From Chlamydiales bacterium (GTDB taxonomy: Bacteria > Chlamydiota > Chlamydiia > Chlamydiales > JAAKFR01): DNA of 32,000 bases. The translations under genes were made by a program, and so were the position numbers. The notes beneath the pieces are model-generated. The model saw nothing but the letters and a program-made list of their open reading frames with translations. It was not told the DNA's origin and made no database searches. The stretch covers positions 120,001 to 152,000 of the forward strand of contig JAWLBH010000001.1 of the NCBI GenBank assembly GCA_041395025.1, read 5' to 3'. Positions 3,357-27,400 of this stretch are shown piece by piece (the first letter of the stretch is position 1; each line of letters starts with the position of its first letter).

Positions 3357-4058
3357 ATGAATAAAGTCACCTCTATCTCTGTATTCCTCTCTTTAATGGT
3401 GTATCTAAATTCTACTTCATATTGCGATCTTTTATTACCAGAGCATAGTCTTGAAGAAGAAGGACACCTTGCATACTATACAGCAAAAGACTTCTCTTAT
3501 CTTATTGGAATGGAAGGCTTTTCAAAGGAAGCCTTGGAAATGCATTTTAAACTTTATGAAGGCTATGTGAAGAATACAAATCTTCTACTGAAGATTCTCT
3601 ATGATTATGTAAAAGAGAATAAAGAAGAAACTCCGCAATTTGGAGCAATTAAACAGAGACTTGCCTTTGAATTAGATGGAATGCGCCTTCATGAACTCTA
3701 TTTTTCAAATTTAGGAGGGAAAGAAGAAATTGATAGAAATACTTCTCTTTACAAGCAAATCATCAAAGATTTTGGAACTTTTGAAACATGGAAACAAAAT
3801 TTTATCAATACTGGAATGATACGGGGTATTGGTTGGGTCATTCTTTATCTAGATCCAGTGAATAAACAGCTAATCAATATGTGGATTTCTGAGCATCAAG
3901 AAAACCATCTAGTAGGTGGAATACCTATCTTAATTATGGATGTATGGGAACATGCTTACATGATTGATTATGGTTTGAATCGTATGAATTATATCAATGC
4001 ATTTTGGAATAAAATCAATTGGAGTATTGTTTCAAGTCGTTATGATAAATCATTTTAA
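3357..4058 (+). CDS. Fe/Mn-family superoxide dismutase with N-terminal signal-like sequence
   Basis: C-terminal signature DVWEHAYMIDY (Asp and His ligands). N-domain ligand histidines are retained in ALEMHF and RLHELYFSNL, and GIGWV is present. Hydrophobic leader MNKVTSISVFLSLMVYL. Confidence 0.85.
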   Translation: MNKVTSISVFLSLMVYLNSTSYCDLLLPEHSLEEEGHLAYYTAKDFSYLIGMEGFSKEALEMHFKLYEGYVKNTNLLLKILYDYVKENKEETPQFGAIKQRLAFELDGMRLHELYFSNLGGKEEIDRNTSLYKQIIKDFGTFETWKQNFINTGMIRGIGWVILYLDPVNKQLINMWISEHQENHLVGGIPILIMDVWEHAYMIDYGLNRMNYINAFWNKINWSIVSSRYDKSF

Positions 4059-4743
4059 CAAAAAAAAAATTGCTGATCTGGATGTATTAGAAATTCCAGG
4101 TGATCCTGATGGCAAAACTATTCTTCTTTTGCATGGATTTGGATCCAATGCCATGGATTTAGTCCCTTTGCACAGGATTTTTCAAGAAAAACTAAAACCT
4201 AACTGGTTATTTCCAATGGCTCCGTTTAATGTTTCAGGGATTCCTAGCAATAAGGGTAGAGCCTGGTTTCCAGTGAATCTATCCACTCTTCAAACAGCTT
4301 TTGAAAAAAAAGATTTAAAAACAGTTGAAAATGCATTTCCTAAGGATTTAACCGAGTTTAGGGAATGCATTGAATGTTTGGTCGGGGAACTCAATATTCC
4401 CCGATCCAAACTGATTATAGGAGGATTTAGTCAGGGAGCTGTTTTATCTGTAGATGTTGCTTTAAATGGAACTGAATCTGTAGCAGCTATTTTAATTTTT
4501 TCAGGAACATTAATTTATGAGTCGATGTGGCGTAGTCTTTCACACCAACATACTAAAACTCTATTTTTTCAAAGTCATGGAACGCATGATCCCTTATTAC
4601 CATTAGAAAAAGCTGCAGAACTTGCATCTCTACTTCAAGACGGTGGACTAAAAGGAAAATTGCATATGTTTGAAGGTGGACATGAAATTCCTCAATCCAT
4701 TTTATTCCAATTGAATTTATTTCTTAAAAGTTTAGTAAATTAA
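4042..4743 (+). CDS. Phospholipase/carboxylesterase-family alpha/beta hydrolase
   Basis: Nucleophile elbow GGFSQGA, Asp in SHGTHDPLLP and His in EGGHEI (Ser-Asp-His triad order). Start moved from the ORF-track 3997 to the ATG at 4042, which leaves a 17-nt overlap with the SOD gene instead of 62 nt. Confidence 0.75.
   Translation: MINHFNKKKIADLDVLEIPGDPDGKTILLLHGFGSNAMDLVPLHRIFQEKLKPNWLFPMAPFNVSGIPSNKGRAWFPVNLSTLQTAFEKKDLKTVENAFPKDLTEFRECIECLVGELNIPRSKLIIGGFSQGAVLSVDVALNGTESVAAILIFSGTLIYESMWRSLSHQHTKTLFFQSHGTHDPLLPLEKAAELASLLQDGGLKGKLHMFEGGHEIPQSILFQLNLFLKSLVN
4060..4069 (+). repeat. A10 homopolymer at the SOD stop / esterase 5' end
   Basis: Counted directly: taa c aaaaaaaaaa ttgct. In the esterase frame it encodes NKKKI. 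Confidence 0.95.
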
Positions 4744-4764
4744 ATATCTAAAAATTTATCGAAC

Positions 4765-5493
4765 TTAATAAATCTGAAGCTTATAAAAAAGAACCTCTAG
4801 ACAAGTCAGAAGTTTAATAGAACGCTCTAAACCCATACGGGCTTCTTGTAGTGCCTTTTCTACATAATCAATCGGAAAAAGAGAAGCGGATTGAATGTGT
4901 TTATGGTAATCTGGATAAGTAAGATAGCGTTCTCCTCCTTTTATGTTTAAGAGCAATCGATCACGATACCAATTTAGCACTGCTTCAAAAAGCTCTTCAA
5001 GTTCTTTTCCTTCTTCAATAGATTCGAGAGGTTCTTTTTGAGCCAAAACATCTAAAATCTTATGTCGACTTGTTTTATGAGGAGCAATAAAATCAATTCT
5101 TCGACAACGGGAAAGAATAGTAGGTAAAATTTTTTCAGGATAATAAGAAACAATAATGATCACTGTAGATTTTGCGGGTTCTTCAAAGATTTTTAGAAGA
5201 GCACTACTACTTGTCAAAAGCATTTTATCAGCTTCATAAATAATGAATACCTTCCACTTAGCTTCATAAGGCACAAACCCTACTTCATAAGCTAGATTGC
5301 GTAAAGTTTCGATCGAATGCATATTTGCTTTTCCATGAGGAAAATATTCATGCAAATCTGGATGTGGGTAGCGCCCTAAAAGGGCGATAGCAAATTGACG
5401 AGCTTTCTGTTCAATCTGAGCTTCTTTAGTTCCAACAAAAAAAAGAGCATGTGGGATTTTATTAGAAGCGATCATGTCAGAAAGAATATCCAT
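4765..5493 (-). CDS. holB: DNA polymerase III delta-prime subunit
   Basis: Degenerate P-loop region HALFFVGTKE, FEEP box and sensor motif ILSRCRRIDF. Located downstream of tmk. I prefer the ATG at 5493 (MDILSDMIASNKIPHALFF) over the TTG at 5505 used by the ORF track. Confidence 0.8.
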   Translation of the reverse strand: MDILSDMIASNKIPHALFFVGTKEAQIEQKARQFAIALLGRYPHPDLHEYFPHGKANMHSIETLRNLAYEVGFVPYEAKWKVFIIYEADKMLLTSSSALLKIFEEPAKSTVIIIVSYYPEKILPTILSRCRRIDFIAPHKTSRHKILDVLAQKEPLESIEEGKELEELFEAVLNWYRDRLLLNIKGGERYLTYPDYHKHIQSASLFPIDYVEKALQEARMGLERSIKLLTCLEVLFYKLQIY

Positions 5494-5501
5494 TTTGTTT
5501 A

Positions 5502-6164
5502 TCAAGACTTAAAAGGTAAAAAATTCTGAAGCCGGTGGAAGCAAGATTGCACTACAAATTCTAATGGTTTAACAGCATCAATGATTGCAATTCGACCAGG
5601 ATATTGATTAGCTAAATCAAGATAACCTTGGCGTGTCTTTTGATGAAATTGCAGCATTTCCTGTTCTAATCGATCGCATGTATTTCTCTCTCGATGTTTT
5701 AAACGTTCCATCCCAATCAAAGGATCAAGATCTAGTAAAAAAGTTATATCTGGCTCTAGTCCTCCTGTAGCTAGTTGACATAATTTTTCAACATATTCTA
5801 AACCTAAATCACGACCATAACCCTGATAAGCAATAGAAGAATCATTAAATCGATCACACACTACAACTTCTCCCCGGTAAAGAGAAGGTGAGATACTATC
5901 TTCGATATGTTGAGCACGAGCGGCTAAAAAAAGAAAAAGCTCAGCACGATTTCCAATTTTATAATGATTTTTAGAGTCTAATAAAAGATGGCGTAGAGCT
6001 TCAGAAAGGAGAGAACCACCTGGTTCACGTGTAGCCATGACTGAATAACCATAGGATTCAATGATTGTTTTAAGGTGTTTACAAACTGTAGTTTTCCCCG
6101 ATCCTTCTCCTCCTTCAATTGTGATAAAAAGTCCCGGATAAGATGGATTATTCCTCTTCTTCAC
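5502..6164 (-). CDS. tmk: Thymidylate kinase
   Basis: P-loop ITIEGGEGSGKTT, DRF motif (VVCDRFNDSSIAYQG) and a lid region. GTG start overlaps the gyrA stop by 17 nt. Confidence 0.9.
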   Translation of the reverse strand: MKKRNNPSYPGLFITIEGGEGSGKTTVCKHLKTIIESYGYSVMATREPGGSLLSEALRHLLLDSKNHYKIGNRAELFLFLAARAQHIEDSISPSLYRGEVVVCDRFNDSSIAYQGYGRDLGLEYVEKLCQLATGGLEPDITFLLDLDPLIGMERLKHRERNTCDRLEQEMLQFHQKTRQGYLDLANQYPGRIAIIDAVKPLEFVVQSCFHRLQNFLPFKS

Positions 6165-8628
6165 TAACCAATGCCTCTTTCTCCTCTACTCTTGCTAATT
6201 TTTCAACAGCAATTAGAGAATCTCCGCTTTTAAGATTTACAAGCTTTACACCTTGTGTTGCACGGCCCATAACACGGAGATCACGCATACTAATACGAAC
6301 AGTTTGCCCCTGAGATGACATCATCAAAAGACCATCTTCATTTAATACAGAAACAGCAGCAAGAACATTCCCATTCCGTGTATTTGTAATGATAGATCGG
6401 ACTCCCTTTCCCCCTCGGTTTGTTTGACGAAAATCTTCTACGTAAGAGCGTTTTCCAAAACCATTTTCACATACAACTAATATGGTACTTTTTTCATTAT
6501 CAATGATTTCACAACCAATGACATAATCATTTTCTTTACCTAAAGTCACCCCTTTGACTCCTCGAGCAGATCGCCCCATTGCACGGACATGTTTATGATC
6601 AAAACGCACTGCCATCCCTTGATAAGTAAAAAGCATGACTTGTTGATTTTCTCCAACTAAATGGGCTGCAATTAACTCATCTCCTTCTTCAATTTCTAGA
6701 GCACGAATCCCCTTTCGTCTTGGATGACTAAAATTAGATAAATCAGTTTTCTTTACAATGCCTCTTTTTGTCGCCATAAAAACATAACGATCAGAATTAA
6801 AGTCTCTGGTTCTTAAAATAATTGCAATTTTTTCTCCTTCTTGGAGATCTTCAATAAAATTCACAAGAGCTTTACCTTTAGAACGACGTTCTCCTTCAGG
6901 TAGCTGCCATACCTTTAACCAATAACAACGTCCAAAATTCGTATAAATTAACAAATAATCATGAGTAGAGGCGACGTAAACTCCTTTTAGCTTATCTGTT
7001 TCACGTCTCATATTAAATCCAGCAACCCCTTGTCCTCCTCTTTTTTGTTCACGAAATGTATCCATAGGCATCCGTTTAACATAATCATCTTGAGAAATTG
7101 TAATGATCACCTGTTCATCAGCAATTAAATCTTCTACATTAAAATCTTCTTCTGCCTGAACAATTTGTGTTTTACGAGGAGAATGATGAGCTTTCTTAAC
7201 TGAAGTTAATTCTTCAGCAATAAGATTGCGTAGCTTTTCTTCACTTGCTAAAAGCTCGCGATAATAGTGAATTTTTTTTAGCAATTCCTGATAATCAGAA
7301 TTAATCTTATCTTGTTCCAGTCCAGTTAATTGATAGAGACGTAGTTCCAAAACAGCTTTCGCTTGACGCTCTGAAAACTTAAAACGAGCAATCAGATCCC
7401 TATAAGCCTCTTCTCTGTTTTTGCTAGAACGAATAATTCTCACTACCTCATCAAGATCCTCAATCGCTTTTAGATAGCCTTCTAAGATATGCGCACGTGC
7501 TTCAGCTTTATTTAGATCAAAGCGAGTTCGTCGGCGAATGACTTCTATTCGATGATGAATCCACGCAAGAATCATTTGCTTGATATTCATGATACGAGGT
7601 AAGTTTTTATCAAGAGCAAGCATATTACAACCAAACGTCGTCTGCATATCAGTGAACTTATAAAGTTGATTGACAACTACATCAACAATTTCTCCTTTTT
7701 TTAACTCAAGAACAATACGCATCCCCTCTTTATCCGATTCATCTCTTACATCACTAATCGCAGTCACTGTTTTATTGTTTACAAGTTCAGCAATCTGCTC
7801 AACAAGACGAGATTTATTGACGTTATAGGGAATTTCATCAATCACAATCCAATCTCGATTGCGATGATCTCGATTCTCTTCGATATGAAAAGTTCCACGA
7901 CAAATCAATCGTCCACGACCCGTATGATAAGCATCATAAATTCCTTTATATCCACAGATCAAACCACCTGTTGGAAAATCAGGGCCAGGCATCACTTTCA
8001 TGATTTCCTCTATCGTGGCTTCCTCATACTTCATCACTAACAGAGTAGCATCAATCAGCTCCATCAAATTATGAGTAGGAATATTTGTCGCCATTCCAAC
8101 TGCGATACCAGAAGACCCATTACATAAAAGATTAGGGAATTTTGCAGGAAAGACAGTGGGTTCAACTCTAGTCTCGTCATAATTGGACACCATATCCACA
8201 GTTTCTTTATCAAGATCTTCCATAAGATGGAGAGCATTGCCAGTAAGGCGAGCTTCTGTATAACGCATTTGTGCTGGAGGGTCACCATCTACTGAACCAA
8301 AATTCCCTTGACCATCAATAAGACAATATCGCATTGCCCAATCTTGAGCCATCCGTACTAATGTCGGATAAATGACAGATTCCCCATGTGGGTGGTAGTC
8401 TCCGGAGGTATCTCCGCAAATTTTCGCACACTTCCTATGCTTAGCTCCTGGTGTCAAGTTGAGTTGGCGCATTGCATATAAGATACGCCTTTGAGAGGGT
8501 TTTAACCCATCACGTACATCGGGAAGAGCTCGAGAAATAATTACTGACATTGAATAACGTAAGTAACTTTCTTTCATTTCATCTTCAAGATTACGAGTCA
8601 AAATCGTTTCATTTTCTCTAAAAGGCAT
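6148..8628 (-). CDS. gyrA: DNA gyrase subunit A
   Basis: 826 aa. Contains LKPSQRRILYAM, YHPHGESVIY (QRDR region), active-site Tyr in AQMRYTEARL, C-terminal beta-pinwheel repeats and an acidic tail. Confidence 0.97.
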   Translation of the reverse strand: MPFRENETILTRNLEDEMKESYLRYSMSVIISRALPDVRDGLKPSQRRILYAMRQLNLTPGAKHRKCAKICGDTSGDYHPHGESVIYPTLVRMAQDWAMRYCLIDGQGNFGSVDGDPPAQMRYTEARLTGNALHLMEDLDKETVDMVSNYDETRVEPTVFPAKFPNLLCNGSSGIAVGMATNIPTHNLMELIDATLLVMKYEEATIEEIMKVMPGPDFPTGGLICGYKGIYDAYHTGRGRLICRGTFHIEENRDHRNRDWIVIDEIPYNVNKSRLVEQIAELVNNKTVTAISDVRDESDKEGMRIVLELKKGEIVDVVVNQLYKFTDMQTTFGCNMLALDKNLPRIMNIKQMILAWIHHRIEVIRRRTRFDLNKAEARAHILEGYLKAIEDLDEVVRIIRSSKNREEAYRDLIARFKFSERQAKAVLELRLYQLTGLEQDKINSDYQELLKKIHYYRELLASEEKLRNLIAEELTSVKKAHHSPRKTQIVQAEEDFNVEDLIADEQVIITISQDDYVKRMPMDTFREQKRGGQGVAGFNMRRETDKLKGVYVASTHDYLLIYTNFGRCYWLKVWQLPEGERRSKGKALVNFIEDLQEGEKIAIILRTRDFNSDRYVFMATKRGIVKKTDLSNFSHPRRKGIRALEIEEGDELIAAHLVGENQQVMLFTYQGMAVRFDHKHVRAMGRSARGVKGVTLGKENDYVIGCEIIDNEKSTILVVCENGFGKRSYVEDFRQTNRGGKGVRSIITNTRNGNVLAAVSVLNEDGLLMMSSQGQTVRISMRDLRVMGRATQGVKLVNLKSGDSLIAVEKLARVEEKEALVSEEEE

Positions 8629-8638
8629 GATGAATATC

Positions 8639-11468
<2,830 letters not shown>

Positions 11469-11726
11469 TACTTCCCTTAAAATCCCTTAGAACCTAGGTA
11501 AAAAAACCATACTCTATCCTTCTATGGAACATCAATAAAAAAGCATTCATGCAAGCAGTTCTTTTGCATTAAAAATCTTAGTAAGAGAAAAGAATCGTCT
11601 AGATCAGCTAGTAAGGATGAGCAAAGAGATGATTGAATAGAAAATTTTAAATCAAAATACTAAAGGAGAAAATGAGAAGTTTACCTATACACAGATTTGC
11701 CACTTTCTCCCTTTGATATTTTCTAT

Positions 11727-12047
11727 TTATTGAGCGGTCTCTACCAGATCATTAGGTGTAGTGTTCTCAAACATAGATTTCCTTACAAATTTTGGATAAA
11801 CTAGATAGGTTGCCAAAGATAACAATGGGATTGTTCCAAACACAATTCCACCGGCTGCTATAAAATAGACGACTCCTCCTCCAAATATTCCAGTTGCAGC
11901 TACAGTCGCTACAATGGCAATAAAAACGGCTGAAATCAAGGCCACCAATCCACCAACTTTCCGGTTAGTCGAAGGGTATATCATAGTAGGTTTCCAAGCT
12001 TCTAAAGGCTGTGATTTACTTTGTTCGAAATTTACTAGTATTGACAT
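11727..12047 (-). CDS. Small membrane protein with bilobed hydrophobic domain (Inc-like candidate)
   Basis: 106 aa. ATG with GGAG 9 nt upstream. Residues about 31-83 form two hydrophobic lobes separated by GGG (GGLVALISAVFIAIVATVAATGIF-GGG-VVYFIAAGGIVFGTIPLLSLATYLV). The N-terminal 30 aa are hydrophilic. Confidence 0.6.
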   Translation of the reverse strand: MSILVNFEQSKSQPLEAWKPTMIYPSTNRKVGGLVALISAVFIAIVATVAATGIFGGGVVYFIAAGGIVFGTIPLLSLATYLVYPKFVRKSMFENTTPNDLVETAQ

Positions 12048-12298
12048 AAGCTTTATCTCCTAAAAGGATTAGTTTGTACATATATTATAAATAAAAATAG
12101 TTTTTTTTTGTTAAAAATTTTAGATAAAAAAATTATTATTAATTTTTATATATAATAATATAATTAAAAGATGAAAGACTGAAAATAAAAGACTATATAA
12201 AATCAGAAAGAAAGCTAAAAAGAACGTATCTAATTTGTATTATATAAATATTTAGAATTTATGTGGTTGTGTATTCAAAAAGATAGTTATACTCTGAT
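12048..12298. other. Extremely AT-rich intergenic spacer
   Basis: 251 bp with very few G/C. Contains T9 and A7 runs and TATA-type repeats. It lies between the 3' end of ORF 12299..14164 and the start of the Inc-like gene, so it presumably holds that gene's promoter. Confidence 0.6.
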
Positions 12299-14164
12299 TC
12301 ATTGTCGAGCTACAATCATTTCCTCAATTGCTAAACGAAGACTTTTTTTCTCTTCGGTAGTTGGATAACGAAAAATTAAACCAAAACTAAAATAATATCT
12401 ATTAGGAACTAGACAAGTAGTAATTTTCCCTAAATAAGGACCTAATTGAAGCATTTTATGAAAATCCAGATCAACCGATGTAATTAAAGAATAAAAATAA
12501 TCTAAATCCTCTTGCATGCGAATCGTATACTTTTCTTCTTTATCCAGTTCCTCTTCTAGAATCATTAAAAAAAGTTTTTTTATCGGTTTCATAGGAAGTA
12601 GACTACGCATAGTTGAAGGAACCAAGGAATAAAAATAGTTTTCAAGTAAAAAAGCCTCTTCTTTCGTTTGATGACCTAAATGTCTTTTTAATCTATCAAA
12701 AAGCTCGCTCTCTTGAGAAATCATCCCTCCGTTATAATCTCTAAATTCCCCAATGAGATAAGTAAGCTCTGAGGCAATTTTTTTACGTGCTTTATAAAGA
12801 TCAATCACATGATTTCTTCGAAAAAAATCACCTTTTGAAATTCTCAGACGAAAAACCGAGGCTTCTTTATGGTATTTTTTACGCAGTGTTCCAACGATTT
12901 TCTGTCTATCTGGAATGAATTCAAGAAAGGTGTGTTTTGCTTTAAAACAGTCACTGATCGGAAGTGTGTCTTGTTTGACTAATCTTACCACAGTAATAAG
13001 AAATTCAAGCTGTTCTTCCATTTGTTGACTAAATTCAATCATTACCTGAGGCAAATCGCGAACAAATTTAAGCTGATTACTTAATGTAAGAATATTACGT
13101 ATAATCATCTCTTCATTTTGAGGCATGAATATAGGATTTAATCGTGATTCAAATCGATTTTTCAGCTCTTGAGGAAGCTCTATTTTTAGAATTTTTTGTT
13201 CTTCTAGGGTAAAAAAGCTGTCCTCTTTTTCAATTTCAATATAAGCCATACAAATTTGGTCTGATTGACGTTTATGATGCAGATAGGATTCAGGAACTTT
13301 TCTCGCTGTAGGAATAATTGCCTGAATTCCACTTAGAATATGACGTGATTCAAAAATTTCATGATCATGAATATAACTTAACCCAATGACAATTCCCAGA
13401 ACAGGACGACCATAACGAATCTTTGCACGAATCAATTTGACACTAATGTACCGTCTTTCAGGAAAAGTTTCGAGTGAGAGCTGCAGTGCGCGTCCAAAAA
13501 GGTAATAGACACAAATAATACGACCAATATGACGATAACTTCTATCTTTCTTGAATCCTTCTTTAGAGATGACAAGAAATCGATGCATTTCTGACAAAAG
13601 ATCATAATCAAAATCCTGAGGACGTTTTTGAATGAGCGAGGTAATGACCTCTTGAATCAAAATATTTTTTTCATCTAATCTTAATCCTTTCATTTCCAAG
13701 ATTCGGCATGCCTGGTAATAGGATTTTAAACCAAGATGAATTTCATTTTTTAGAAGAGGTAGATTATTTTGAATAGCTCTAAGTTCAAATAAATTTCTAA
13801 TTTGAACCATGACCTCTCCTACAACATATTTTTGGTCATGAAGATGGGGAAAAGAAAAATCAGCTGCAAATTGTAGAATAGGATTTAAACGCTTATCTGG
13901 AATCAACCAACGACTGATCATTTCATAGAAGAAATGAAATGCATTAGGCCGAAAATGGCAACAGAGAAAAAAAGAGAGATTGAATGGAGGCTGACTAAAC
14001 TGAGTTGCAGAGATCATCGGAAGTTGGGTATTAAAATGAGAGAAAGATTCCTGGTCTTTAAAAAAATTAGAAGGAAAAAGCAGATCTAAAATTCGATGAA
14101 CTGCTCTCATACAAAATGGACTTTTTTTCTCAAAATTATCTGGAATACGCAGATAGTTATTCAT
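12299..14164 (-). CDS. Hypothetical protein, free-standing copy of the ~620-aa module also found at the N-terminus of ORF 24407..27850
   Basis: Long intact ORF with block-wise similarity to residues 1-636 of the 1147-aa ORF. I prefer the ATG at 14164, which has AGGAG 6 nt upstream and overlaps the kinase stop (ATGAATAA), over the TTG at 14179. No signal peptide or TM segment is evident. Confidence 0.8.
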   Translation of the reverse strand: MNNYLRIPDNFEKKSPFCMRAVHRILDLLFPSNFFKDQESFSHFNTQLPMISATQFSQPPFNLSFFLCCHFRPNAFHFFYEMISRWLIPDKRLNPILQFAADFSFPHLHDQKYVVGEVMVQIRNLFELRAIQNNLPLLKNEIHLGLKSYYQACRILEMKGLRLDEKNILIQEVITSLIQKRPQDFDYDLLSEMHRFLVISKEGFKKDRSYRHIGRIICVYYLFGRALQLSLETFPERRYISVKLIRAKIRYGRPVLGIVIGLSYIHDHEIFESRHILSGIQAIIPTARKVPESYLHHKRQSDQICMAYIEIEKEDSFFTLEEQKILKIELPQELKNRFESRLNPIFMPQNEEMIIRNILTLSNQLKFVRDLPQVMIEFSQQMEEQLEFLITVVRLVKQDTLPISDCFKAKHTFLEFIPDRQKIVGTLRKKYHKEASVFRLRISKGDFFRRNHVIDLYKARKKIASELTYLIGEFRDYNGGMISQESELFDRLKRHLGHQTKEEAFLLENYFYSLVPSTMRSLLPMKPIKKLFLMILEEELDKEEKYTIRMQEDLDYFYSLITSVDLDFHKMLQLGPYLGKITTCLVPNRYYFSFGLIFRYPTTEEKKSLRLAIEEMIVARQ

Positions 14165-14948
14165 ACACTGCTCCTGCAAGCTTAAGATTTGATTGTGAAA
14201 TCACCGTACCTTCTCCGGTCAAGTCTAGAAAAGAACGTACATGTAATGGAAGTGCATTGTTTTTAGCTAAAACAAGGGCTCGATTGTGAAGAACACGTCC
14301 TCCACTTGTATTGACAATTTCCAGTGCTTCATCAAAAGATAATTGAGAATAAAAAAAAGCTTGTGGATCATGGATTGGATCTTTAGAAAAAATCCCCTTA
14401 ACATCTTTATAGAGTTCAACTTTTTCAGCTCCAAGGGCAATCCCTAAAGCAACAGCTGAAGTATCTGACCCACCTCTTCCAAGAGTAGTAATCTCTTTAT
14501 TCTGACTCACACCTTGAAAACCAGCTACAATGACAATTTTTCCTTGATTGAGAGAGAGAATAAGACGTTCTGGTCTCACAGAAAGGATCCGCGCTTCTCG
14601 ATGTTGATTTGTTGTCAAAATACCAGACTGACTCCCAGTAAAGCTGACTGCATCAACCCCCTTAGCTGCTAGAGCCATAGCTAAAAGTGAAATACTAATC
14701 CTCTCACCAGCACTTACAAGCATATCATATTCACGTTCAGGAGGAGAGGGATTAATCCGAAATGCAAGAGAGATCAGATTATCTGTCATCCCACTCATGG
14801 CACTGACAACAACAACGATATGAAAATATTCTTTTTTTCTTTCTAGAATAAGATCCGCTAAGCTAGAAAAAATCTCAGGATTTTTTAAAACTGCTCCCCC
14901 AAACTTCATAATGAGGGTTTTCTTTTTTTCTGATAGACTGTTTTCCAT
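14157..14948 (-). CDS. lysC: Aspartokinase-like amino-acid kinase, catalytic domain only (no ACT domains)
   Basis: MKFGGAVL, VVVVSAMSGMTDNL, GERISISLLAMALAAKGVDAVSFTG, TTLGRGGSDTSAVALG and YKDVKGIFSKDP follow the aspartokinase pattern. The ORF ends about 20 aa after the kinase core. The start is ATG at 14948 or 14909; the 15068 start in the ORF track is unlikely. Confidence 0.75.
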   Translation of the reverse strand: MENSLSEKKKTLIMKFGGAVLKNPEIFSSLADLILERKKEYFHIVVVVSAMSGMTDNLISLAFRINPSPPEREYDMLVSAGERISISLLAMALAAKGVDAVSFTGSQSGILTTNQHREARILSVRPERLILSLNQGKIVIVAGFQGVSQNKEITTLGRGGSDTSAVALGIALGAEKVELYKDVKGIFSKDPIHDPQAFFYSQLSFDEALEIVNTSGGRVLHNRALVLAKNNALPLHVRSFLDLTGEGTVISQSNLKLAGAVYE

Positions 14949-15618
14949 GAACCTTAATCTTCTTCTTGTTCCAATACATATCGCAATTGTTTGTGGATTA
15001 ACCTTGTTTACATTGCGCTTCGGTAAAGAAATGATCATTACTTGGCTCTCTTTGCTCGTCGTGATCATGAATCTTTTTGTACTTAAACAAATTACTTTTT
15101 TTAATTTAAGTATTACACCAACAGATGCATTGAGTGTAGGATATCTTCTAGGATTGAATTTGATTCAAGAATTTTTTGGAAAAAAAACTGCTCATAAAAC
15201 AGTTTGGATTTCTCTATTCATTTCCGTATCTTTTGTTATTCTTGCACAAATTCACCTTGCTTACCTTCCCAACTCCCATGATCTATCACAAACCCATTTT
15301 ATATTTCTTCTAAAACCCCTACCCCGTCTTATGACGGCTTCTCTGATTTCTTTTGTCATCGTGCAATTTTTTAACCTAGCATTTTTTCGATTTTTACAAA
15401 GAAAGATGTCTAATAAATATTTAACAACTCGCACAATTCTCACTCTGATTCTTTCACAGATAGCTGATACAGTGCTTTTTAATCTTATTGGTCTTTATGG
15501 AATAATTGCAAATACCCATCATGTAATTCTTTTCAGTTTGATGATCAAAGGAATGATCATCATCTTCTCTACACCTTTTGTTTATCTTTCGAGGCAAGTC
15601 ATTCGTCATGAATTTTGA
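14947..15618 (+). CDS. yhhQ: YhhQ/DUF165-family membrane protein (queuosine-precursor/queuine transporter family)
   Basis: About 223 aa with 6 or more TM segments. Colinear resemblance to E. coli YhhQ, for example ASLISFVIVQFFNLAFFRFLQRK...LILSQIADTVLFNLIGLYG against ASFMAYALGQILDVHVFNRLRQ...LFGNVSDTLAFFFIAF (recalled sequence). Overlaps the tgt start by 11 nt. Confidence 0.65.
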   Translation: MNLNLLLVPIHIAIVCGLTLFTLRFGKEMIITWLSLLVVIMNLFVLKQITFFNLSITPTDALSVGYLLGLNLIQEFFGKKTAHKTVWISLFISVSFVILAQIHLAYLPNSHDLSQTHFIFLLKPLPRLMTASLISFVIVQFFNLAFFRFLQRKMSNKYLTTRTILTLILSQIADTVLFNLIGLYGIIANTHHVILFSLMIKGMIIIFSTPFVYLSRQVIRHEF

Positions 15619-16729
15619 AATTCTCCATAAATCAAAAAAATCTAGTGCACGTGTGGGAAGGATCTACACACCCCATGGGATTATCGATACACCAAATTTT
15701 GTTGCTGTAGGGACAAATGGAACACTGAAAGCGCTCAATAATGAAATGATTGATCAAATGGGTGTGCAACTCATGTTTTGTAACACCTATCATCTCTTAC
15801 TTCAGCCGGGGACTGGGATTATTAAAAAAGCTGGTGGCCTCCACAAGTTTATTCAACGTAAACAACCTCTGATTACTGATTCAGGAGGATTTCAAATTTT
15901 TAGTCTTAATGCTCAAGCCATGCATAATGAAATTAAAAGCCATCGTCATACACAAGAAAAAGGAGGCGTGTTAAAAATCAATGAAGAAGGAGTCACTTTT
16001 CGTTCTTATCGGAATGGAGAAAAAATTTTACTGACTCCTGAATCTTCAATAGAAGCACAAAAAGATCTAGGGGCTGATATCATTATTCCACTAGATGAGC
16101 TTCCTCCCCATTCTATTGATCATGATAATCTGAAAAAATCTCTTGCTCGAACCCATCGTTGGGAAATGCGTTCTCTAAATACTCATCTAGCCAATCCCCA
16201 GAATCAAGCGATATATGGAGTGATCCATGGTGGTATTGACTTTGAACTACGTAAATTAAGCATCAAAACATTGACTGAATTACCTTTTGATGGTTTTGCC
16301 ATTGGAGGAAGTATAGGAAAAAATAGACAAGAAATGAGTGATCTCATTGAATATATCTGTCCACTTCTTCCTGAGGAAAAACCCAATCACCTTCTTGGTA
16401 TCGGAGATGTCCCTTCAATTCGTAGACTCATTCCTTTTGGAATTGATACTTTTGATAGTTCATATCCTACTCGTGCAGCTCGTCATGGACTTTTATTAAC
16501 ACAATCTGGAGGGTTGAAAATTCATCAACGTCATTATGCAACTTCTTTTCAACCTATCGAAACTGACTGTGCCTGCTCTACTTGCTCGATTCATTCTCTC
16601 GCTTATCTTCATCACCTTTTTAAAGCAAGAGAAGTGATTTTTTTGAATCTTGCAACGATTCATAATCTCCATTTTATGATTAAAATGATGATGATTTGTA
16701 GGAAAGAAATCCTTGAAGATAAAATTTAG
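15608..16729 (+). CDS. tgt: tRNA-guanine transglycosylase
   Basis: ITDSGGFQIFSL, GIDTFDSSYPTRAARHG and the zinc site CACSTC...H. Start set at the ATG at 15608 (MNFEILHKSKKSSARVGRIYTPHG), giving a typical Tgt N-terminus. Confidence 0.93.
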   Translation: MNFEILHKSKKSSARVGRIYTPHGIIDTPNFVAVGTNGTLKALNNEMIDQMGVQLMFCNTYHLLLQPGTGIIKKAGGLHKFIQRKQPLITDSGGFQIFSLNAQAMHNEIKSHRHTQEKGGVLKINEEGVTFRSYRNGEKILLTPESSIEAQKDLGADIIIPLDELPPHSIDHDNLKKSLARTHRWEMRSLNTHLANPQNQAIYGVIHGGIDFELRKLSIKTLTELPFDGFAIGGSIGKNRQEMSDLIEYICPLLPEEKPNHLLGIGDVPSIRRLIPFGIDTFDSSYPTRAARHGLLLTQSGGLKIHQRHYATSFQPIETDCACSTCSIHSLAYLHHLFKAREVIFLNLATIHNLHFMIKMMMICRKEILEDKI

Positions 16730-16771: not shown

Positions 16772-18109
16772 TTAGAAAATATATGCATCCCAATCTCCAT
16801 ATTTTTCTTTAATTTTTCCTCGAAAAATAGACAAACTAATAATACACATTGAGATCACGACTATATGCCAAATAAATAGAAGGGTTGCACCAGAAAGAAC
16901 AAACGTAGATATAATAAGCCATAGAGCAATAGCTATATTCATCAATCTTAGAGCACGAACCACCTCTGCCCAAGAAATAATCGAAAAAACGATAATCAAG
17001 GCACCACAAACATCTATATTATCGGCTAGTATTCCTTGGCATCGAAAAATATCTTTTGAAAATAATAACCATCCCCCAATTAACGCTGTGATTAAAAGAT
17101 TCCATTGAATTTTTACCCCAAAAAACATCGATTGAATGATTTTCCTAGGAGCTTCACTGAAGCTAGATGTCTGATGGTCAGAGCTTGTGATACTATCTAA
17201 CGTGTATTTTGAACCCATAAAAAAAGTACGCCAAAAGGGTTTTTTTTCACGACGAATTTGGGACAAATACTGGCAAACGGCAACCACTTCGTCAATAGTT
17301 AAAGCGAGCATAATAAGCATACAGGTTGCGATAATTAAACAAAGACCGCACCAAGCACCGACAACAATTGGCTGAAGCATGACAAGAGTAATGCTCACAA
17401 AACCTAGAGGAACAACCAGAATTCCAAATATTACCACTATCCAAGGCATTGTATGCCAACGACGCACTCCTCCTTTTGCTCCCATAATCGCTTCCAAAGA
17501 ATAGGCCATTGCCCCTAACCCTGCATCAGGAACAGGAAAATCATGCGAAATCATAGAGGTGATCACTTTTTCGGTTCCTAATCCAAAAAATGGATCCCAA
17601 ACAAAATGAATATAGTGAAGTTGAAAAGCTGCCATATAACGGGCAATAAACCATCCTACAATAGCAAAAAAAATCACTGGAATTCTTTGAGACCATGCGG
17701 AGGGGTTGTAAGTCCAACCATGAGGAATTTCAGGGCCAATTTCAAACTGATAGGGTCTTAAAGGGACTAAGACACAAAATGAAATAGCAAGTACCCCGAT
17801 CAGGGTATCATTCACATAAATCACAGGTTCTTTAGCCCAAAATACAAGTGGAGCAAATTGAAGCCAAATTCCCACAATGGCACCTGTCCAAATCCAACCA
17901 CTCAATTTCTGCTTCATTGATATGCCACCAAAAATAATCAATAGAAATCCAGAAATCCAATCACTGTAATGCAACCTGGAATCAATATATCCGAAAGATT
18001 CTGGGCTCATTAACAACCAAAAACCTAGAAAAATCATTCCAAACCGAGTCCAAATCATTTTATTGTGAAATTCTCGATAAATTCTATTGTACTCCTTTTC
18101 ATTCACCAT
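16772..18109 (-). CDS. Polytopic membrane protein, VKOR-like core with intramembrane CxxC, flanked by SPW-like repeats
   Basis: 445 aa with 10 or more hydrophobic segments. The central stretch VITSMISHDFPVPDAGLGAMAY...AWCGLCL resembles the VKOR pattern (V-L-x-S...F-G-I-P...L-G...Y, then a TM CxxC). Four W-L-rich repeats (GFWLLMSPESF, GIWLQFAPLVF, GGWLLFSKDIF, ALWLIISTFVL) are also present. Assignment is from memory of family patterns. Confidence 0.45.
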   Translation of the reverse strand: MVNEKEYNRIYREFHNKMIWTRFGMIFLGFWLLMSPESFGYIDSRLHYSDWISGFLLIIFGGISMKQKLSGWIWTGAIVGIWLQFAPLVFWAKEPVIYVNDTLIGVLAISFCVLVPLRPYQFEIGPEIPHGWTYNPSAWSQRIPVIFFAIVGWFIARYMAAFQLHYIHFVWDPFFGLGTEKVITSMISHDFPVPDAGLGAMAYSLEAIMGAKGGVRRWHTMPWIVVIFGILVVPLGFVSITLVMLQPIVVGAWCGLCLIIATCMLIMLALTIDEVVAVCQYLSQIRREKKPFWRTFFMGSKYTLDSITSSDHQTSSFSEAPRKIIQSMFFGVKIQWNLLITALIGGWLLFSKDIFRCQGILADNIDVCGALIIVFSIISWAEVVRALRLMNIAIALWLIISTFVLSGATLLFIWHIVVISMCIISLSIFRGKIKEKYGDWDAYIF

Positions 18110-21197: not shown

Positions 21198-21253
21198 CTA
21201 TATATTTAATAAAAAAATTATTATTGGTAATATAGAAATATTTAGGAATTTTG

Positions 21254-21916
21254 ATGCGTTTTATTAAACCTCTTGTACTAATTACTTGTTTTTTACTCAT
21301 CGCAATTGTGGTTTTTTACTATCACTTATTTTTGAAACAACCTCTAGAACCAATCCCTATGACAACACAAAATAACCCTACAATTGGATATCAAAAGGCC
21401 CAAGTTCATGTAGTGGTATTTGAAGAACCAAAATGCAAGAATTGTAAGGTTTTCAATAATGAAATTTTCCCAACTATCAAAAAGCAATTTATTGATACGA
21501 ACAAAATTCTATATACCACAATCCCTGTTTCATTCTTACCAGACTCCATGCCCATGGCAGTGGGAGCGCTGTGTGCCTATTATGCTGATCCTCAATATCC
21601 AAATTATGAGATGTTTGGCAAATACTGTAACTATATCTACTCTTTTGAATCTGATCATGAGGAGGGTCTGATGAACCTTGATACACTGACTGAATTTAGT
21701 AAAACACTCTCTCTTGGAATGGATATTTCTCAATTAAAAGAGTGTATTCAAACCCAAAAATACCGTGTTCAGATTGAAAAAAATACTGATTATGGAATAG
21801 AAATAATGAATGGAATGATTTCTACACCAACAGTTTATGTAAATGGAATTGAAGTTAAAGAAAGGACAATTGAGGGTATTTCAAAATTAATTCAAACCTA
21901 CCTACAAGAAGAATAA
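21254..21916 (+). CDS. Membrane-anchored DsbA-family thiol:disulfide oxidoreductase
   Basis: N-terminal TM segment (LVLITCFLLIAIVVFYYHLF). Thioredoxin-fold active site FEEPKCKNCKVF and a cis-Pro region (ISTPTVYVNG). The extra Cys pair (C..YY...C) could form a second disulfide. ATG at 21254, directly after the TTG in the ORF track. Confidence 0.75.
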   Translation: MRFIKPLVLITCFLLIAIVVFYYHLFLKQPLEPIPMTTQNNPTIGYQKAQVHVVVFEEPKCKNCKVFNNEIFPTIKKQFIDTNKILYTTIPVSFLPDSMPMAVGALCAYYADPQYPNYEMFGKYCNYIYSFESDHEEGLMNLDTLTEFSKTLSLGMDISQLKECIQTQKYRVQIEKNTDYGIEIMNGMISTPTVYVNGIEVKERTIEGISKLIQTYLQEE

Positions 21917-21919
21917 AAA

Positions 21920-22351
21920 GTGGCTCGTAGTCTTTCCTTATATTTAGCATGGTTATTTGCCTCGATAGGAATACTTGCTAGTCTATATTTTAGTCATATT
22001 TCTCATTTTGAACCCTGCTATATATGTTGGTATCAGAGAATCTGTCTCTTTCCTTTAGGGATTATTCTAGGAATAGCTGCTTATAAAAGTTTTCTTAATA
22101 TTACTATTTACATACTTCCTCAAGTCATTATAGGCTTTCTTTTTTCTGTTTATCAAATTGCTATCCAAGAATTTCCAAATTTAAATGGAATGAGTCTATG
22201 TGGGAAAGAGTCAAATTGTATAAATAAATATGATTTAGGACTTGGTTTCATAACTATTCCTATGCTTTCTGCCATTCTCTTTCTGGTCGTCGGTTCTCTG
22301 CTGCTGTTTAGCTGGAAATATAAGAGTCAAAAGAAGGATGATCATTTTTAA
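21920..22351 (+). CDS. dsbB: Disulfide bond formation protein B (short BdbC-like type)
   Basis: 143 aa with 4 TM segments. First pair in EPCYICWYQRI (the classic PCxxCxxQR motif), second pair in the loop SLCGKESNC. GTG start 3 nt after the DsbA-like stop. Confidence 0.8.
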   Translation: MARSLSLYLAWLFASIGILASLYFSHISHFEPCYICWYQRICLFPLGIILGIAAYKSFLNITIYILPQVIIGFLFSVYQIAIQEFPNLNGMSLCGKESNCINKYDLGLGFITIPMLSAILFLVVGSLLLFSWKYKSQKKDDHF

Positions 22352-23216: not shown

Positions 23217-23759
23217 TTAATTTATATATAAATATATCTTAGAACCAAATAAATCATTTAGTTCTACTGTGCGAATAGGAATCCATCCAGGAATGGAAAA
23301 GGTATTTGTGATAATCCACGTTCCGGGTTTCATTTCTTTTTTAAACTTGCTTTTTAACTTCTCCATTGCTTTTGGATAAAGATAACAAACCACAAGATCT
23401 GCTTCTTTAATGGAGATTTTAAGAAAGTTTTTTCTAGAGATTTTAAGGTTATGAATTCCTAGTATTTTTTTTAATCCTAATGAAACAATCCATGGAAACC
23501 AAGAGCCTTCAAAAGCATGAATCCATGCCCAAGGATAATGTTTGGCTAAAGAACAGGCTAAATTCCCCCATCCTGACCCTAATTCAAAAACATTTTTTGG
23601 AGTTTTAGGTAGTAGAGAAAATAAGGCTTGTTTCGCCTTATAGGAAGTAGGCATAGGAGAAATCCCATAGTATAATGAAAATCCTACAATCGATATGCTG
23701 ATCAGACAAGTAACAATTATAAAAATTAGTATGATCATTTTATTCTCAATTCTGATCAA
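23217..23759 (-). CDS. Class I SAM-dependent methyltransferase-like protein, possibly N-terminally membrane-anchored
   Basis: Motif I-like VFELGSGWGNLA and post-I DLVVCYL. N-terminal hydrophobic segment MIILIFIIVTCLISISIVGF if the start is 23759 or 23738. An alternative start at 23654 would remove it. Confidence 0.55.
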   Translation of the reverse strand: MIRIENKMIILIFIIVTCLISISIVGFSLYYGISPMPTSYKAKQALFSLLPKTPKNVFELGSGWGNLACSLAKHYPWAWIHAFEGSWFPWIVSLGLKKILGIHNLKISRKNFLKISIKEADLVVCYLYPKAMEKLKSKFKKEMKPGTWIITNTFSIPGWIPIRTVELNDLFGSKIYLYIN

Positions 23760-24081
23760 TATAATTGCTGTATGGGCAACAGGATATATCCTTCCTGGTA
23801 TTCATATAAAAAACTTTGTTACAATTATTTTAGTGGCTGTGATCTTTGGTATTACAAATTCTACCTTACGCCCGATACTTTTTATTCTCACATTGCCAAT
23901 CAATATACTTACAATGGGACTGTTTTCTTTTGTCATTATGGGATTGATTGTCTACTTTGTGAGCATGATTGTGCCTGGATTTATTATTGATAACTTTATC
24001 TCAGCTATTTTCTTCTCTTTAATTTTCTCTCTGATTCGCTCATTTCTTACTTTTTTTACGACTCCTAGTCATAAATTTTAA
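23731..24081 (+). CDS. DUF360 / YvlD-type small membrane protein (Pfam 'phage holin 4_2' family)
   Basis: About 116 aa with 4 TM segments. The pattern INIIAVWATGYILPGIHIKNF...NSTLRPILFILTLPINILTMGLFSFVI is typical of the YvlD/DUF360 family. Start set at the ATG at 23731. Confidence 0.6.
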   Translation: MIILFSILINIIAVWATGYILPGIHIKNFVTIILVAVIFGITNSTLRPILFILTLPINILTMGLFSFVIMGLIVYFVSMIVPGFIIDNFISAIFFSLIFSLIRSFLTFFTTPSHKF

Positions 24082-24406: not shown

Positions 24407-27400
24407 GTGGTTCAAAAACAAAAATCTTTTTCAGAAAAAAATGACTTTCAAATACATAAACAACACATGTTTAGTCTTATAAAAAAGATTTTTGGTGATG
24501 AACTAACTGGTCAAGAAAATCCCACAAAAAGACTTCCCCTATTTAAGTGGAAAATTTCACCATTCACTCCTGGAGCATTTTTCTTTTATCTTCTATTCCC
24601 TTCTGACTGGAATCGAAATGCGATTTTATTTGTCGAAGATATTTTAACCAATTACCTAGTTCCTAATAAACAATTGAAACTTCTATCCTCTAGAAATCTA
24701 GATTTTTATCCAGCGACTTCTGGAACACCTCTATTTTTTATAGAGATTTCTATTTACATTCCTAACAAAAAAATTCTTCAAATCATCGAAAAAAGGCTCC
24801 CAGAAATTGTAGATAAAATTAAGGCAAGTACCTTTTCATCGGGTTATACTAAATCTATGCTCAAAATGAAGAACTTCCTATTCGATGAAGATATTACTTA
24901 TATTCACGACTTAGTAACTAAGTTAATTAGTCATTACCCTAAACATTTTTCAAATGATATTTTCCGTGATATCCAACATTTTATGTCCCATTTTCATCAG
25001 GAATTTAGAAAAATTCGCCAACTACACCATCTTTGCCGAATTATTTGCACCCACTACCTTTTCCAAAAATCTCTAGAAAAAGAAATGAAACTCTTTCCTC
25101 ATAATCGCCATGTCTATCTAAGGTTGATGCAAACCTATCTCCGTTATCCATTTGGTTTAAAAAAAGTTCTTGGTTTAGCAATCTGTCTGAATTCTCTTCA
25201 AAATTATGAATTCTTTGAACTTCGCCATATTATTAGAGCAATTCAACGGATTATTCCTAATATAAGAGCCTTACAAAACACTTATTATTCACATAAAAAT
25301 GAAGAGAATCGATTACTCACTTTTTATCTTGAAATTGAAAAAAGTAATAGGAAAAATTTTAATTTAGAAGATATTAAAAAATTAAAAAAAGAGCTACCTA
25401 GCGAACTAAAAAATAGTATTGAATATCTATCTCCCTCCCTTTTTATTCCACGTAATGAAGAAGAGCTTATTCGGAATATCGTGAACTTAAGTCAAGAATT
25501 AAGATTTGTTCGAGACATTCCTCAAGCTATTATTTCTTTTCAAGAACAAAATAATCATATTCTAACATTTAACATCATTCTTCTTCGCGTTCTCGATAAA
25601 AATAGTTGCGATCTTCATTCTCTGGTCCATCTTCTTCCTGAAAATGTCCTCTTCATCTCTGAACGAACTGCAAATGTCGGTTATCTTCGTAAAAAATATA
25701 TTAAAGAAGCGAATATTTTTTCTGTAAAAATTGATAGTCAATTGTTTCTACGTAAAAATCACTCAGTTGACCTATTAAAAGCTCGTCAATATGTAGTTCA
25801 AGCAGTTGAGAAAATGATCGGGCCTTTTCGTGATTATAACGGCGGATTTTTGATAAAACAAAATGAACAACTTGAAGCAATTACATTAGCAATAGGACCA
25901 GCAGCAAAACAAAACGCTCTTTTACTTGAAAATTTTTTCTATTCACTCAGCCCTTCAGTCCTACAAACCTATATCGATCCCCAAAAAGGAAAAATTCTTT
26001 TTTTGCTACTTCTTACCACTCTACAAACTCCAATCCCTCACCAAGCAAGGTATCTAAAAAAAACCCATATTGAACATGATTCATTAGCAATAGTCGTAAA
26101 ATCAACAGATCCTGAAATTAATAATACACTAGCTAAAGCTATCGATACACTCAATATTGATCCTTTACAACTCGCTTTTGCTGTAATAGAAGTAGACTGT
26201 TTTTATTATCAATGTTATCTTTATCTTAACCCAACTAAAAAAGAAGCAGATCACTTTATTAAAGTGATTGAAAATGCGATCTTTTCTTTGATTAAAGAGA
26301 ATCTTAATCAACAGATTCTCTATTTTCATCTTCCTCGTGCCGCACAATCGCTTGATCCTCGTATTGGTGCTGATTGGACCTCTGGTATCATCATTCGAAT
26401 GCTCTATGAAGGATTAATGCGTATTACAGAAATAGGTTATCCTGAACCAGCTATTGCTCAATCCTATACTCTTTCTGAAGATAAGAAAACCTATTGCTTC
26501 TATCTAAGAAAAACCATTTGGTCTAATGGAATGCCTCTAACAGCTTATGATTTCGAATATGCTTGGAAAAAAATTCTTGAACCAAACTTTGAATATTTTT
26601 ATTCATTTCTTTTTTTTCCAATTAAAAATGCTAGAGCTGTGAAAAAAGGAGAAATGCCAATGAGTGAAGTTGGTATTCAAGTATTGGATTCTTATACTCT
26701 TGTAGTTGAACTTGAATATAGTTTCTACGCATTCCTCTCTTTAGTAGCAAGTTGGATTTATTCTCCTCTATGTCGAGAAATTGACCAACAGTATCCCGGA
26801 TGGGCTTATCATAATGTTGAAAATTATGTATGTAATGGCCCTTTTAAGCTGAATATTTGGGAACTTAACCATGAACTACAAGTCATAAGAAATCCTAACT
26901 ACTGGGATGCTTCATCTGTGAAGCTCGATAAAATCCAATTTAGTATTATTAAGAGCGAAAAAGCGGCTTTAGATCTATTTCTACATGGGAAAGCTGATTG
27001 GGTAGGTGACCCCCTTATCAAAATCCCTATAAATCAAATTGAGTCTTTGAAAAAAAAAAACTTACTCAAAACTTCCAATACAAATTATGCTCTCTTCTTA
27101 ATGCATCTTAATGGTGAATATATTCCTTTTCAAATTAAAAATATGAGAAAAGCCTTCGCCTACTGTATTAATCGGGAAGAATTAATCAAAAATATTCTTC
27201 AAGCGGATTACCTACCTGCTTATGGATTTGCTCACATCCCTCCTAAAAACCAACATCTTTCAATTCCTGAAAACGATCCCGAATTAGCAAAATTTCATTT
27301 TAAAAAGGGTCTTGATGAACTTGGAATTACACTTGAAGACTTTCCTCCGATTTTAATCACTCATAGTGATATCGAAGAACAAGAAAAAGTCAGTCGTGCA

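Follow-up and report, generated by a model that had tools for sequence, protein, structure and literature searches.

What does a protein of 621 amino acids (aa) that has no Pfam entry do when its gene begins inside the last codons of an aspartokinase gene? The question is raised by a free-standing gene (12299-14164, minus strand) in the open reading frame (ORF) listing of a 32,000-nucleotide stretch of a Chlamydiales bacterium (assembly GCA_041395025.1, contig JAWLBH010000001.1, positions 120,001 to 152,000 of the forward strand), which we refer to as the window and whose coordinates count from its first nucleotide. The window has a G+C content of 34.6%, and its gene content (gyrA, gyrB, dciA, tgt, yhhQ, and opp genes) is chlamydial. 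The protein, here called the module, recurs in the window fused to an OppA-type peptide-binding domain, and an initial annotation had suggested for it a role in amino acid or peptide sensing or regulation. We found that the neighboring kinase gene encodes a catalytic domain only, that the two genes stay together in related genomes, and that the module is predicted to contain four ACT-like domains. In our assessment, the chances are about even that the module serves a split aspartokinase as its regulatory or assembly subunit, detached from the catalytic chain and made of four ACT-like domains.

The upstream aspartokinase lacks ACT domains and overlaps the module gene

The gene upstream of the module (14157-14909, minus strand) encodes an aspartate kinase of 250 aa with AA_kinase as its only domain, counted from Met54 of the open frame as in the version of the gene caller (P0273). 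The frame itself reaches 15068 (ORF 14157-15068), and this extension is probably over-called. Pfam AA_kinase covers ORF residues 50-279 (7e-46) and the best NCBIfam matches are all aspartate-kinase models, with 264-276 bits, the match covering only positions ∼1-245 of the ∼407 in the profile; the bit scores fall below the full-length NCBIfam cut-offs because the C-terminal third is absent. When aligned with Escherichia coli LysC, the similarity stops at LysC residue 291, which is the catalytic-domain boundary. The kinase ORF ends ∼10 residues past the catalytic match, and the upstream gene is therefore an aspartokinase catalytic domain without ACT domains, a point that the initial annotation had missed. 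This is not a local defect, since the 120 best database relatives of the kinase, among them the annotated aspartokinases of Candidatus Protochlamydia amoebophila and P. naegleriophila, are all equally short (249-307 aa) and have AA_kinase as their sole Pfam domain.

To our knowledge, every structurally characterized aspartokinase class uses C-terminal ACT domains for dimerization and feedback inhibition. A kinase without ACT domains of its own makes a regulatory-subunit role for its partner much more specific than the general amino acid sensing first suggested; ligand sensing is something that we only infer.

The two genes are tightly joined. On direct reading of the minus strand, the module ATG (14164-14162) opens the 621-aa frame, and the longest mechanical ORF (12299-14179, 626 aa) starts with a TTG five codons before it. 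We took the ATG at 14164 as the module start because, in the ATG-started version, the alignment with close homologs begins at residue 1-2. The kinase frame ends with GCA GTG TAT GAA TAA, its TAA stop lying at 14159-14157, and the kinase stop and module start share the 8-nucleotide (nt) overlap ATGAATAA (14164-14157, minus strand). Across the junction the minus strand reads ...GCAGGAGCAGTGTATGAATAA, and a longer stretch around it is ...GCAGGAGCAGTGTATGAATAACTAT... A Shine-Dalgarno-like AGGAG lies within the kinase coding sequence (14175-14171, minus strand), exactly 6 nt before the module ATG. Both the overlap and this motif had been pointed out in the initial annotation, and direct reading bears them out. 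A promoter and terminator scan of 11400-15700 was uninformative, with counts no higher than those of shuffled controls.

Conservation of the gene pair and a natural fusion

Is the arrangement particular to this genome? We surveyed 80 loci from species-representative genomes, using the motifs P-I-F-M-P-x-N-E-E and G-E-F-R-D-Y-N-G-G of the module as search patterns, and found by tblastn a kinase gene immediately upstream and on the same strand at 77 of them. Among the labels of the loci are Parachlamydiaceae, Waddliaceae, and Rhabdochlamydiaceae, and there are also “Verrucomicrobia” metagenome-assembled genomes (MAGs) with chlamydial synteny. The kinase ORFs across the 77 loci are ∼260-290 aa long. 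With the first in-frame ATG as module start, the two genes overlap in 41 pairs and are separated by 0-20 nt in 16, by 21-120 nt in 10, and by more in another 10, giving an overlap or a gap of at most 20 nt in 57 of the 77. None of the gaps between kinase and module encodes ACT domains, and the largest (585 nt, at locus L025) holds no credible ORF. A Shine-Dalgarno-like motif precedes the heuristic module start at only 24 of the 77 loci, which speaks against the generality of this element. The link between the module and an amino acid kinase, first noted at the single locus in the window, is thus kept among the homologs.

Two loci from uncultured Parachlamydiaceae (L023 and L027) have intact module genes, of 647 and 666 aa, with neither an upstream kinase nor a remnant of one found, and at L075 the upstream sequence was too short to judge. 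The opposite-strand upstream neighbor of the module at L027 encodes an F-box protein.

The wider neighborhood bears on whether the two genes share anything beyond expression. The gyrB/dciA/tgt/yhhQ surroundings of the pair are common to the closest relatives only, and distant genomes keep kinase and module together in unrelated contexts, at L004 with all other synteny gone. A module that is merely co-expressed could have an unrelated function, such as nucleic acid binding through a ferredoxin-like or RRM-like fold, or a chlamydia-specific developmental role. Such a function would suit the adjacency of the pair to gyrB, dciA, tgt, and yhhQ in the closest relatives, the two loci without a kinase, and the fact that our Foldseek searches, described below, also returned the PheRS anticodon-binding domain, a ribosomal protein, and LAGLIDADG endonucleases. 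We nevertheless regard shared expression alone as highly improbable, given that the pair stays together where the gyrB/tgt neighborhood is lost, that a covalent fusion of kinase and module exists, and that the paralog of the module is linked to a different ligand-binding protein and not to nucleic acid enzymes.

The fusion protein, P0244, has 825 aa, of which residues 3-228 are AA_kinase and residues 251-820 the module, and the identical protein is encoded on contigs of two sequencing runs. By alignment, its residue 284 corresponds to module residue 78, and ∼15 residues lie between the end of the kinase domain and module residue ∼50. Because P0244 lacks module residues 1 to ∼50, a frameshift of one base in the overlap does not explain it, and the fusion appears to be a genuine product of evolution. 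In P0244 the module takes the exact position of the ACT domains in ordinary aspartokinases. An alignment of P0244 with separate kinases and modules was discarded, as MAFFT had put ∼126 module residues onto the kinase part. Together with this natural fusion lineage, the 77 of 80 paired loci confirm the kinase linkage on which the initial annotation had built.

Predicted fold of the module

The module family is large, unnamed, and without a Pfam model or structure. It comprises 604 homologs at an E value of ≤1e-3 in a 90%-identity collection, of which all named ones are chlamydial “hypothetical proteins,” and ∼966 clusters in a 50%-identity representative library. Searches of Pfam, NCBIfam, and PDB sequences with the single sequence and with a 47-member profile returned nothing usable.

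We therefore turned to predicted structure. A full-length AlphaFold2 model built from the 47-sequence alignment had a mean predicted local distance difference test score (pLDDT) of 86.6 and a predicted template modeling score (pTM) of 0.48, and a second model, of residues 232-482, reproduced the domains D2 and D3 with a pLDDT of 89.8 and a pTM of 0.59. All of the following elements are predicted and lie on the minus strand. D1 (residues 50-147; 13724-14017) consists of strands 50-53 and 61-70, helix 75-86, strands 95-104 and 112-122, and helix 125-147, and is followed by a helical segment, HM1 (residues 149-233; 13466-13720), with helices at 149-159, 163-180, 188-199, 202-207, and 210-233. D2 (residues 240-335; 13160-13447) and D3 (residues 373-471; 12752-13048), the latter the most conserved domain, have the same ββαββα topology as D1 in both models. 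A second helical segment, HM2 (residues ∼480-537; 12554-12724; helices 480-496, 498-502, 504-512, 519-522, and 525-537), leads to D4 (residues 546-620; 12305-12529), again ββαββα, with strands 546-552 and 556-563, helix 568-571, strands 581-587 and 592-599, and helix 603-620. As ACT criterion we used a two-layer α/β sandwich of ∼70-100 aa with four antiparallel strands and two helices, ordered βαββαβ or permuted to ββαββα. In the predicted structure, the four units match the ACT-type order strand-strand-helix-strand-strand-helix with pLDDT values mostly above 85.

In Foldseek searches against the PDB, the best probabilities went to the 180-kDa large glutamate dehydrogenase (GDH) of Mycobacterium smegmatis, L-GDH180 (0.98 for 9hv6, 0.97 for 9hv0, 0.92 for 9hux, and 0.91 for 7a1d), in a match that spans 98 columns and one domain only, with a root mean square deviation (rmsd) of 4.7-4.8 Å, 17-18% identity, and an E value of ∼0.04. 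It was the D2-D3 model that yielded these best probabilities, to the ACT-like domains of L-GDH180. The tandem-ACT protein 2nyi from Galdieria followed with 0.85-0.92, and lower matches included the ACT-like domain of GL3, the regulatory subunit 6vz8_G of acetohydroxyacid synthase (AHAS), SerB2, the anticodon-binding domain of PheRS (0.80), a ribosomal protein (∼0.7), and LAGLIDADG endonucleases (≤0.15). The only two matches at E values of ≤1e-3, both with the full-length model, to KICSTOR and a LOV-histidine kinase, were rejected as spurious, with probabilities of 0.33-0.41, an rmsd above 30 Å, and TM-scores of ∼0.1; matches to MHC, LAGLIDADG, and PAS proteins were set aside for their low probability.

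The N-terminal segment of L-GDH180 combines three ACT-like domains with one PAS-type domain and three helical motifs, and its ACT-like domains have the topology ββαββα, a variant that has likewise been reported for aspartate kinases (PMC8175468). BLAST often fails to detect ACT sequences (PMC8175468). The predicted topology of the module and its alternation with helical segments fit this pattern, L-GDH180 (7a1d, 9hv0, and 9hv6) likewise having several such domains that alternate with helical motifs and are attached to an amino acid-metabolizing enzyme. The two differ in that the array of L-GDH180 contains the PAS-type domain and continues into a fused GDH catalytic core; the Pfam models GDH_ACT and GDH_HM do not match the module, and a GDH domain is absent from it.

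Conserved residues point to D2, D3, and their linker

Judged over 47 homologs, the invariant residues of the module fall mainly within D2 and D3, in the linker that joins them, and in the loop that follows D3. In or next to D2 these are R238, S293, Y308, and E310, and E339 and D370 are invariant as well. In the linker, the motif P-I-F-M-P-x-N-E-E (residues 344-352; 13109-13135, minus strand) contains the invariant residues F346, M347, N350, and E352; D3 contributes F378, F388, G425, K433, A435, R449, L456, A459, and R460, and the motif G-E-F-R-D-Y-N-G-G after it (residues 472-480; 12725-12751, minus strand) contributes G472, R475, D476, N478, G479, and G480. The linker motif IFMPxNEE is the sole internal stretch with a pLDDT below 50 in both models, which would suit a loop that becomes ordered upon partner or ligand binding.

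The module could be a non-sensing assembly or stabilizing subunit that holds the kinase, or the OppA-type domain of the paralog, in an oligomer or at a cellular site, with no ligand and no allostery. Gene pairing and fusion show association, not regulation; the large helical segments and the low pTM would fit an extended scaffold, the same module occurs with two unrelated partners, as expected of a generic adaptor, and an ACT sequence signature is not detectable. We consider such a scaffold unlikely, as the invariant residues R238, E310, E339, N350, E352, D370, K433, R449, R460, R475, D476, and N478 cluster in D2, the linker, and D3, and clustered invariant charged and polar residues resemble a binding site more than a packing surface. 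ACT-like topology is, moreover, typically tied to ligand binding (PMC8175468).

The same invariant Arg, Lys, Asp, Glu, and Asn residues could also form an active site. The module would then be an enzyme or carrier-type partner that acts on aspartyl phosphate or on an OppA-delivered peptide, and the operon a short pathway; consecutive enzymes, too, typically show tight operon coupling and Rosetta-stone fusions, and the family matches no known domain. Against this, no catalytic domain with meaningful probability is found among the structural neighbors, and in the four small α/β sandwiches and their helices neither a nucleotide-binding nor any other catalytic fold was recognized. The enzyme that follows aspartokinase in the pathway, aspartate-semialdehyde dehydrogenase, has a well-known fold that is unrelated to the module. 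A catalytic role for the module thus appears very unlikely to us.

A paralogous subfamily associated with OppA-type proteins

The initial annotation had recognized a second copy of the module on an OppA fusion, and BLASTP confirms it (35% identity over 454 aa; E = 3e-87). The paralog (24407-27850, plus strand) is a protein of 1147 aa that joins a module (residues 10-628) to a mature-type SBP_bac_5/OppA domain. The family hidden Markov model covers residues 10-628 with an E value of 6e-169, and residues 679-1055 match Pfam SBP_bac_5 (4e-60). We found neither a signal peptide nor a membrane segment between module and SBP_bac_5; the usual export or lipoprotein signal before SBP_bac_5 is absent, and the fused substrate-binding protein (SBP) starts at its mature part. 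The end of the fusion gene is overlapped by a gene for an OppA-type lipoprotein of 526 aa (27837-29417, plus strand; Pfam SBP_bac_5, 1e-67), whose signal peptide ends with ...SSLNAC.

Among the top 150 representatives of the family, at least 10 further clusters (1095-1173 aa) are module-SBP_bac_5 fusions, and another class of modules, of 675-727 aa, carries an insertion in HM1. At L088, a second SBP gene comes after a module-SBP fusion, the same arrangement as in the window. At L087 (3417-7124) and L089 (5247-9184), modules of 707 and 727 aa directly follow an SBP_bac_5 gene, with a 3-nt gap or a 4-nt overlap, and the upstream SBPs have lipoprotein-type N termini. The association of the paralog class with OppA-type proteins is as consistent as that of the module with the kinase, and the link of the other module copy to a peptide-binding protein, on which the initial annotation had also relied, now rests on a second subfamily that is fused or adjacent to SBP_bac_5/OppA genes. 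The topology of this association is puzzling, since one arrangement pairs the module with an SBP that is exported and the other has an SBP domain that is necessarily co-localized.

Some further observations concern these loci. The L089 cluster contains three SBP genes and a DUF885 gene. In a chlamydial MAG (L015), a module (4001-5908) and a module-OppA fusion (6702-9905) are adjacent on the same strand, and kinase, module, and module-OppA therefore form one cluster. Close upstream of the module-OppA fusion in the window lies the gene for a 128-aa membrane protein (23695-24081, plus strand; Pfam Phage_holin_4_2, 1e-26). At its left edge (50-412, plus strand), the window encodes the C-terminal oligo_HPY region of an Opp/Dpp ATPase, which places an opp transporter operon ∼24 kb from the fusion.

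The two subfamilies hint at a wider role. The module could be a previously unrecognized, phylum-specific allosteric adaptor of four ACT-like domains that plugs into ligand-handling partners, one copy controlling the aspartokinase and the paralog carrying a cytoplasmic OppA-like receptor, so that de novo diaminopimelate synthesis could be balanced against the salvage of imported or recycled, peptidoglycan-derived peptides. We hold this adaptor to be quite unlikely as stated; were it true, an SBP_bac_5 domain would for the first time be seen to act as a sensor inside the cell, mounted on an ACT-type scaffold.

A possible split aspartokinase

Which reading then accounts best for the locus? Because an ACT-less catalytic chain is tightly coupled, and in one lineage fused, to a protein with four predicted ACT-like domains, a split aspartokinase is the most economical one. 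In all three classes of aspartokinase, the regulatory unit is made of four ACT domains, which come as two plus two across a homodimer, as two plus two from the α and β subunits in Corynebacterium, or as four within one chain in Synechocystis (PMC4142519).

In the split aspartokinase that we envisage, the upstream gene would provide the catalytic AA_kinase domain only, and the module would be translated from the transcript that it shares with the kinase, probably with coupling through the ATGAATAA overlap. The module would bind the kinase, act in trans as the four-ACT unit for regulation and assembly that the kinase lacks, and pass on to the catalytic subunit the level of an end product such as lysine, threonine, meso-diaminopimelate, or a related compound. 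D2, the linker, and D3, with the IFMPxNEE and GEFRDYNGG motifs, would be the likely ligand or docking site, and the paralogous subfamily might use the same scaffold with OppA-type peptide-binding proteins. In this scheme the gene overlap, the ACT-less kinase, the conserved pairing, and the natural fusion are observed and the topology is that of the predicted models, while the kinase-module complex, ligand binding, and regulatory output are what we infer from them.

Several of our results weigh against a split aspartokinase with ACT-like regulation. At the sequence level, none of the 47 family members matches an ACT-clan Pfam model, even at an E value of ≤5, hmmsearch and hhalign gave no signal against the ACT region of E. 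coli LysC (a weak test with one target sequence), and hhalign detected no similarity among D1-D4, between HM1 and HM2, or between the two halves of the module. At the level of structure, the domain-level Foldseek E values are not significant (best, 9e-3) and the TM-scores are low; ferredoxin-like α/β sandwiches are common, as the PheRS and ribosomal protein matches illustrate, and the high pLDDT and low pTM of both models indicate that the domains are predicted with confidence and their mutual arrangement is not. As for the genomic evidence, two loci have a module and no adjacent kinase, and these genomes may carry a full-length aspartokinase besides the kinases surveyed. Finally, the tie of the paralog to OppA is not expected from a kinase-specific role, and some of the OppA genes encode exported lipoproteins. 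The suggestion of ACT/RAM-like units, which the initial annotation had offered as speculation from a pattern seen by eye, stands in part: four ββαββα domains are predicted and the top Foldseek probabilities are to ACT-like domains, whereas profile matches and statistical significance are missing.

Two ideas about the origin of the module were also set aside on the hmmsearch and hhalign results, namely, its descent from the lost ACT region of the kinase, within the limits of that single-target test, and its internal duplication, D1-D4 being alike in predicted topology only.

Compared with known systems, the module would, as a regulatory part on a separate polypeptide, resemble the β subunit of class II aspartokinases (Corynebacterium glutamicum and Thermus), and its four small α/β domains, as predicted, match in number the four-ACT unit found in all aspartokinase classes, which in the class III Synechocystis enzyme lies in one chain. 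The ACT regions of aspartokinases are C terminal to the catalytic domain, as is the module in the natural fusion. The class II β subunit, however, arises from an in-frame internal start of lysC, has ∼160-170 aa, and is identical to the C terminus of the α subunit, whereas the module is encoded by a separate gene in another frame and has 621 aa, two long helical segments, and no ACT sequence similarity. The class II α subunit also keeps its own pair of ACT domains, while the kinase described here has none. Further parallels are 2nyi, the plant ACR proteins, which have four ACT repeats, and the small subunit of AHAS (IlvH), all of them repeated-ACT proteins or separate ACT subunits of a catalytic partner encoded by a neighboring gene. 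These stand-alone multi-ACT proteins match ACT profiles and have no long helical inserts; for the module, the reverse is true. ACT-type regulatory subunits are thus already known, and what would be new here is the size, the lack of ACT sequence similarity, the full removal from the catalytic chain, and the reuse with OppA-type partners. The searchable literature contained nothing relevant on ACT-less aspartokinases or on this gene pair in chlamydiae.

Aspartokinase catalyzes the committed step toward meso-diaminopimelate, which is needed for chlamydial peptidoglycan, and toward lysine. Most environmental chlamydiae appear to use a catalytic-only chain and a 620-aa partner in place of ACT domains within the enzyme. 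If this partner is the regulatory subunit, the pair would add a fourth architectural class to the aspartokinases. A large family of “hypothetical proteins” would thereby gain a function, and there would be a testable route to how obligate intracellular bacteria tune the synthesis of amino acids and cell wall precursors. The pairing of the paralog with OppA hints at a wider, reusable sensing scaffold.

Other genes around the pair

Just downstream of the module, an ORF of 106 aa (11727-12047, minus strand) contains a long, two-lobed hydrophobic stretch, VGGLVALISAVFIAIVATVAATGIFGGGVVYFIAAGGIVFGTIPLLSLATYLV, and matches neither Pfam nor NCBIfam. At L001 and L003, the equivalent position is taken by ORFs of 76-77 aa. 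The shape of the 106-aa protein is reminiscent of chlamydial inclusion membrane proteins.

On the other side of the pair lies a gene for a Vut_1/YhhQ-type transporter (14911-15618, plus strand), with the gene for the queuine tRNA-ribosyltransferase Tgt (15578-16729, plus strand) directly after it, which suggests a queuosine-precursor salvage pair. These two genes run divergently from the kinase-module operon and stay with it in the closest relatives. The maximal kinase ORF on the minus strand and the Vut_1 ORF, which begins at 14911 on the plus strand, overlap divergently at 14909-15068, and both starts are therefore over-called. With a kinase of 250 aa, little or no intergenic space is left for two divergent promoters, and at L001 the called kinase and its divergent neighbor are only 12 nt apart.

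Farther along, a VKOR protein of 445 aa (16772-18109, minus strand) is flanked by SPW repeats, and a DsbA-like thioredoxin (21251-21916, plus strand) is followed by DsbB (21920-22351, plus strand); VKOR and DsbA/DsbB are apparently two disulfide-bond systems within 6 kb.

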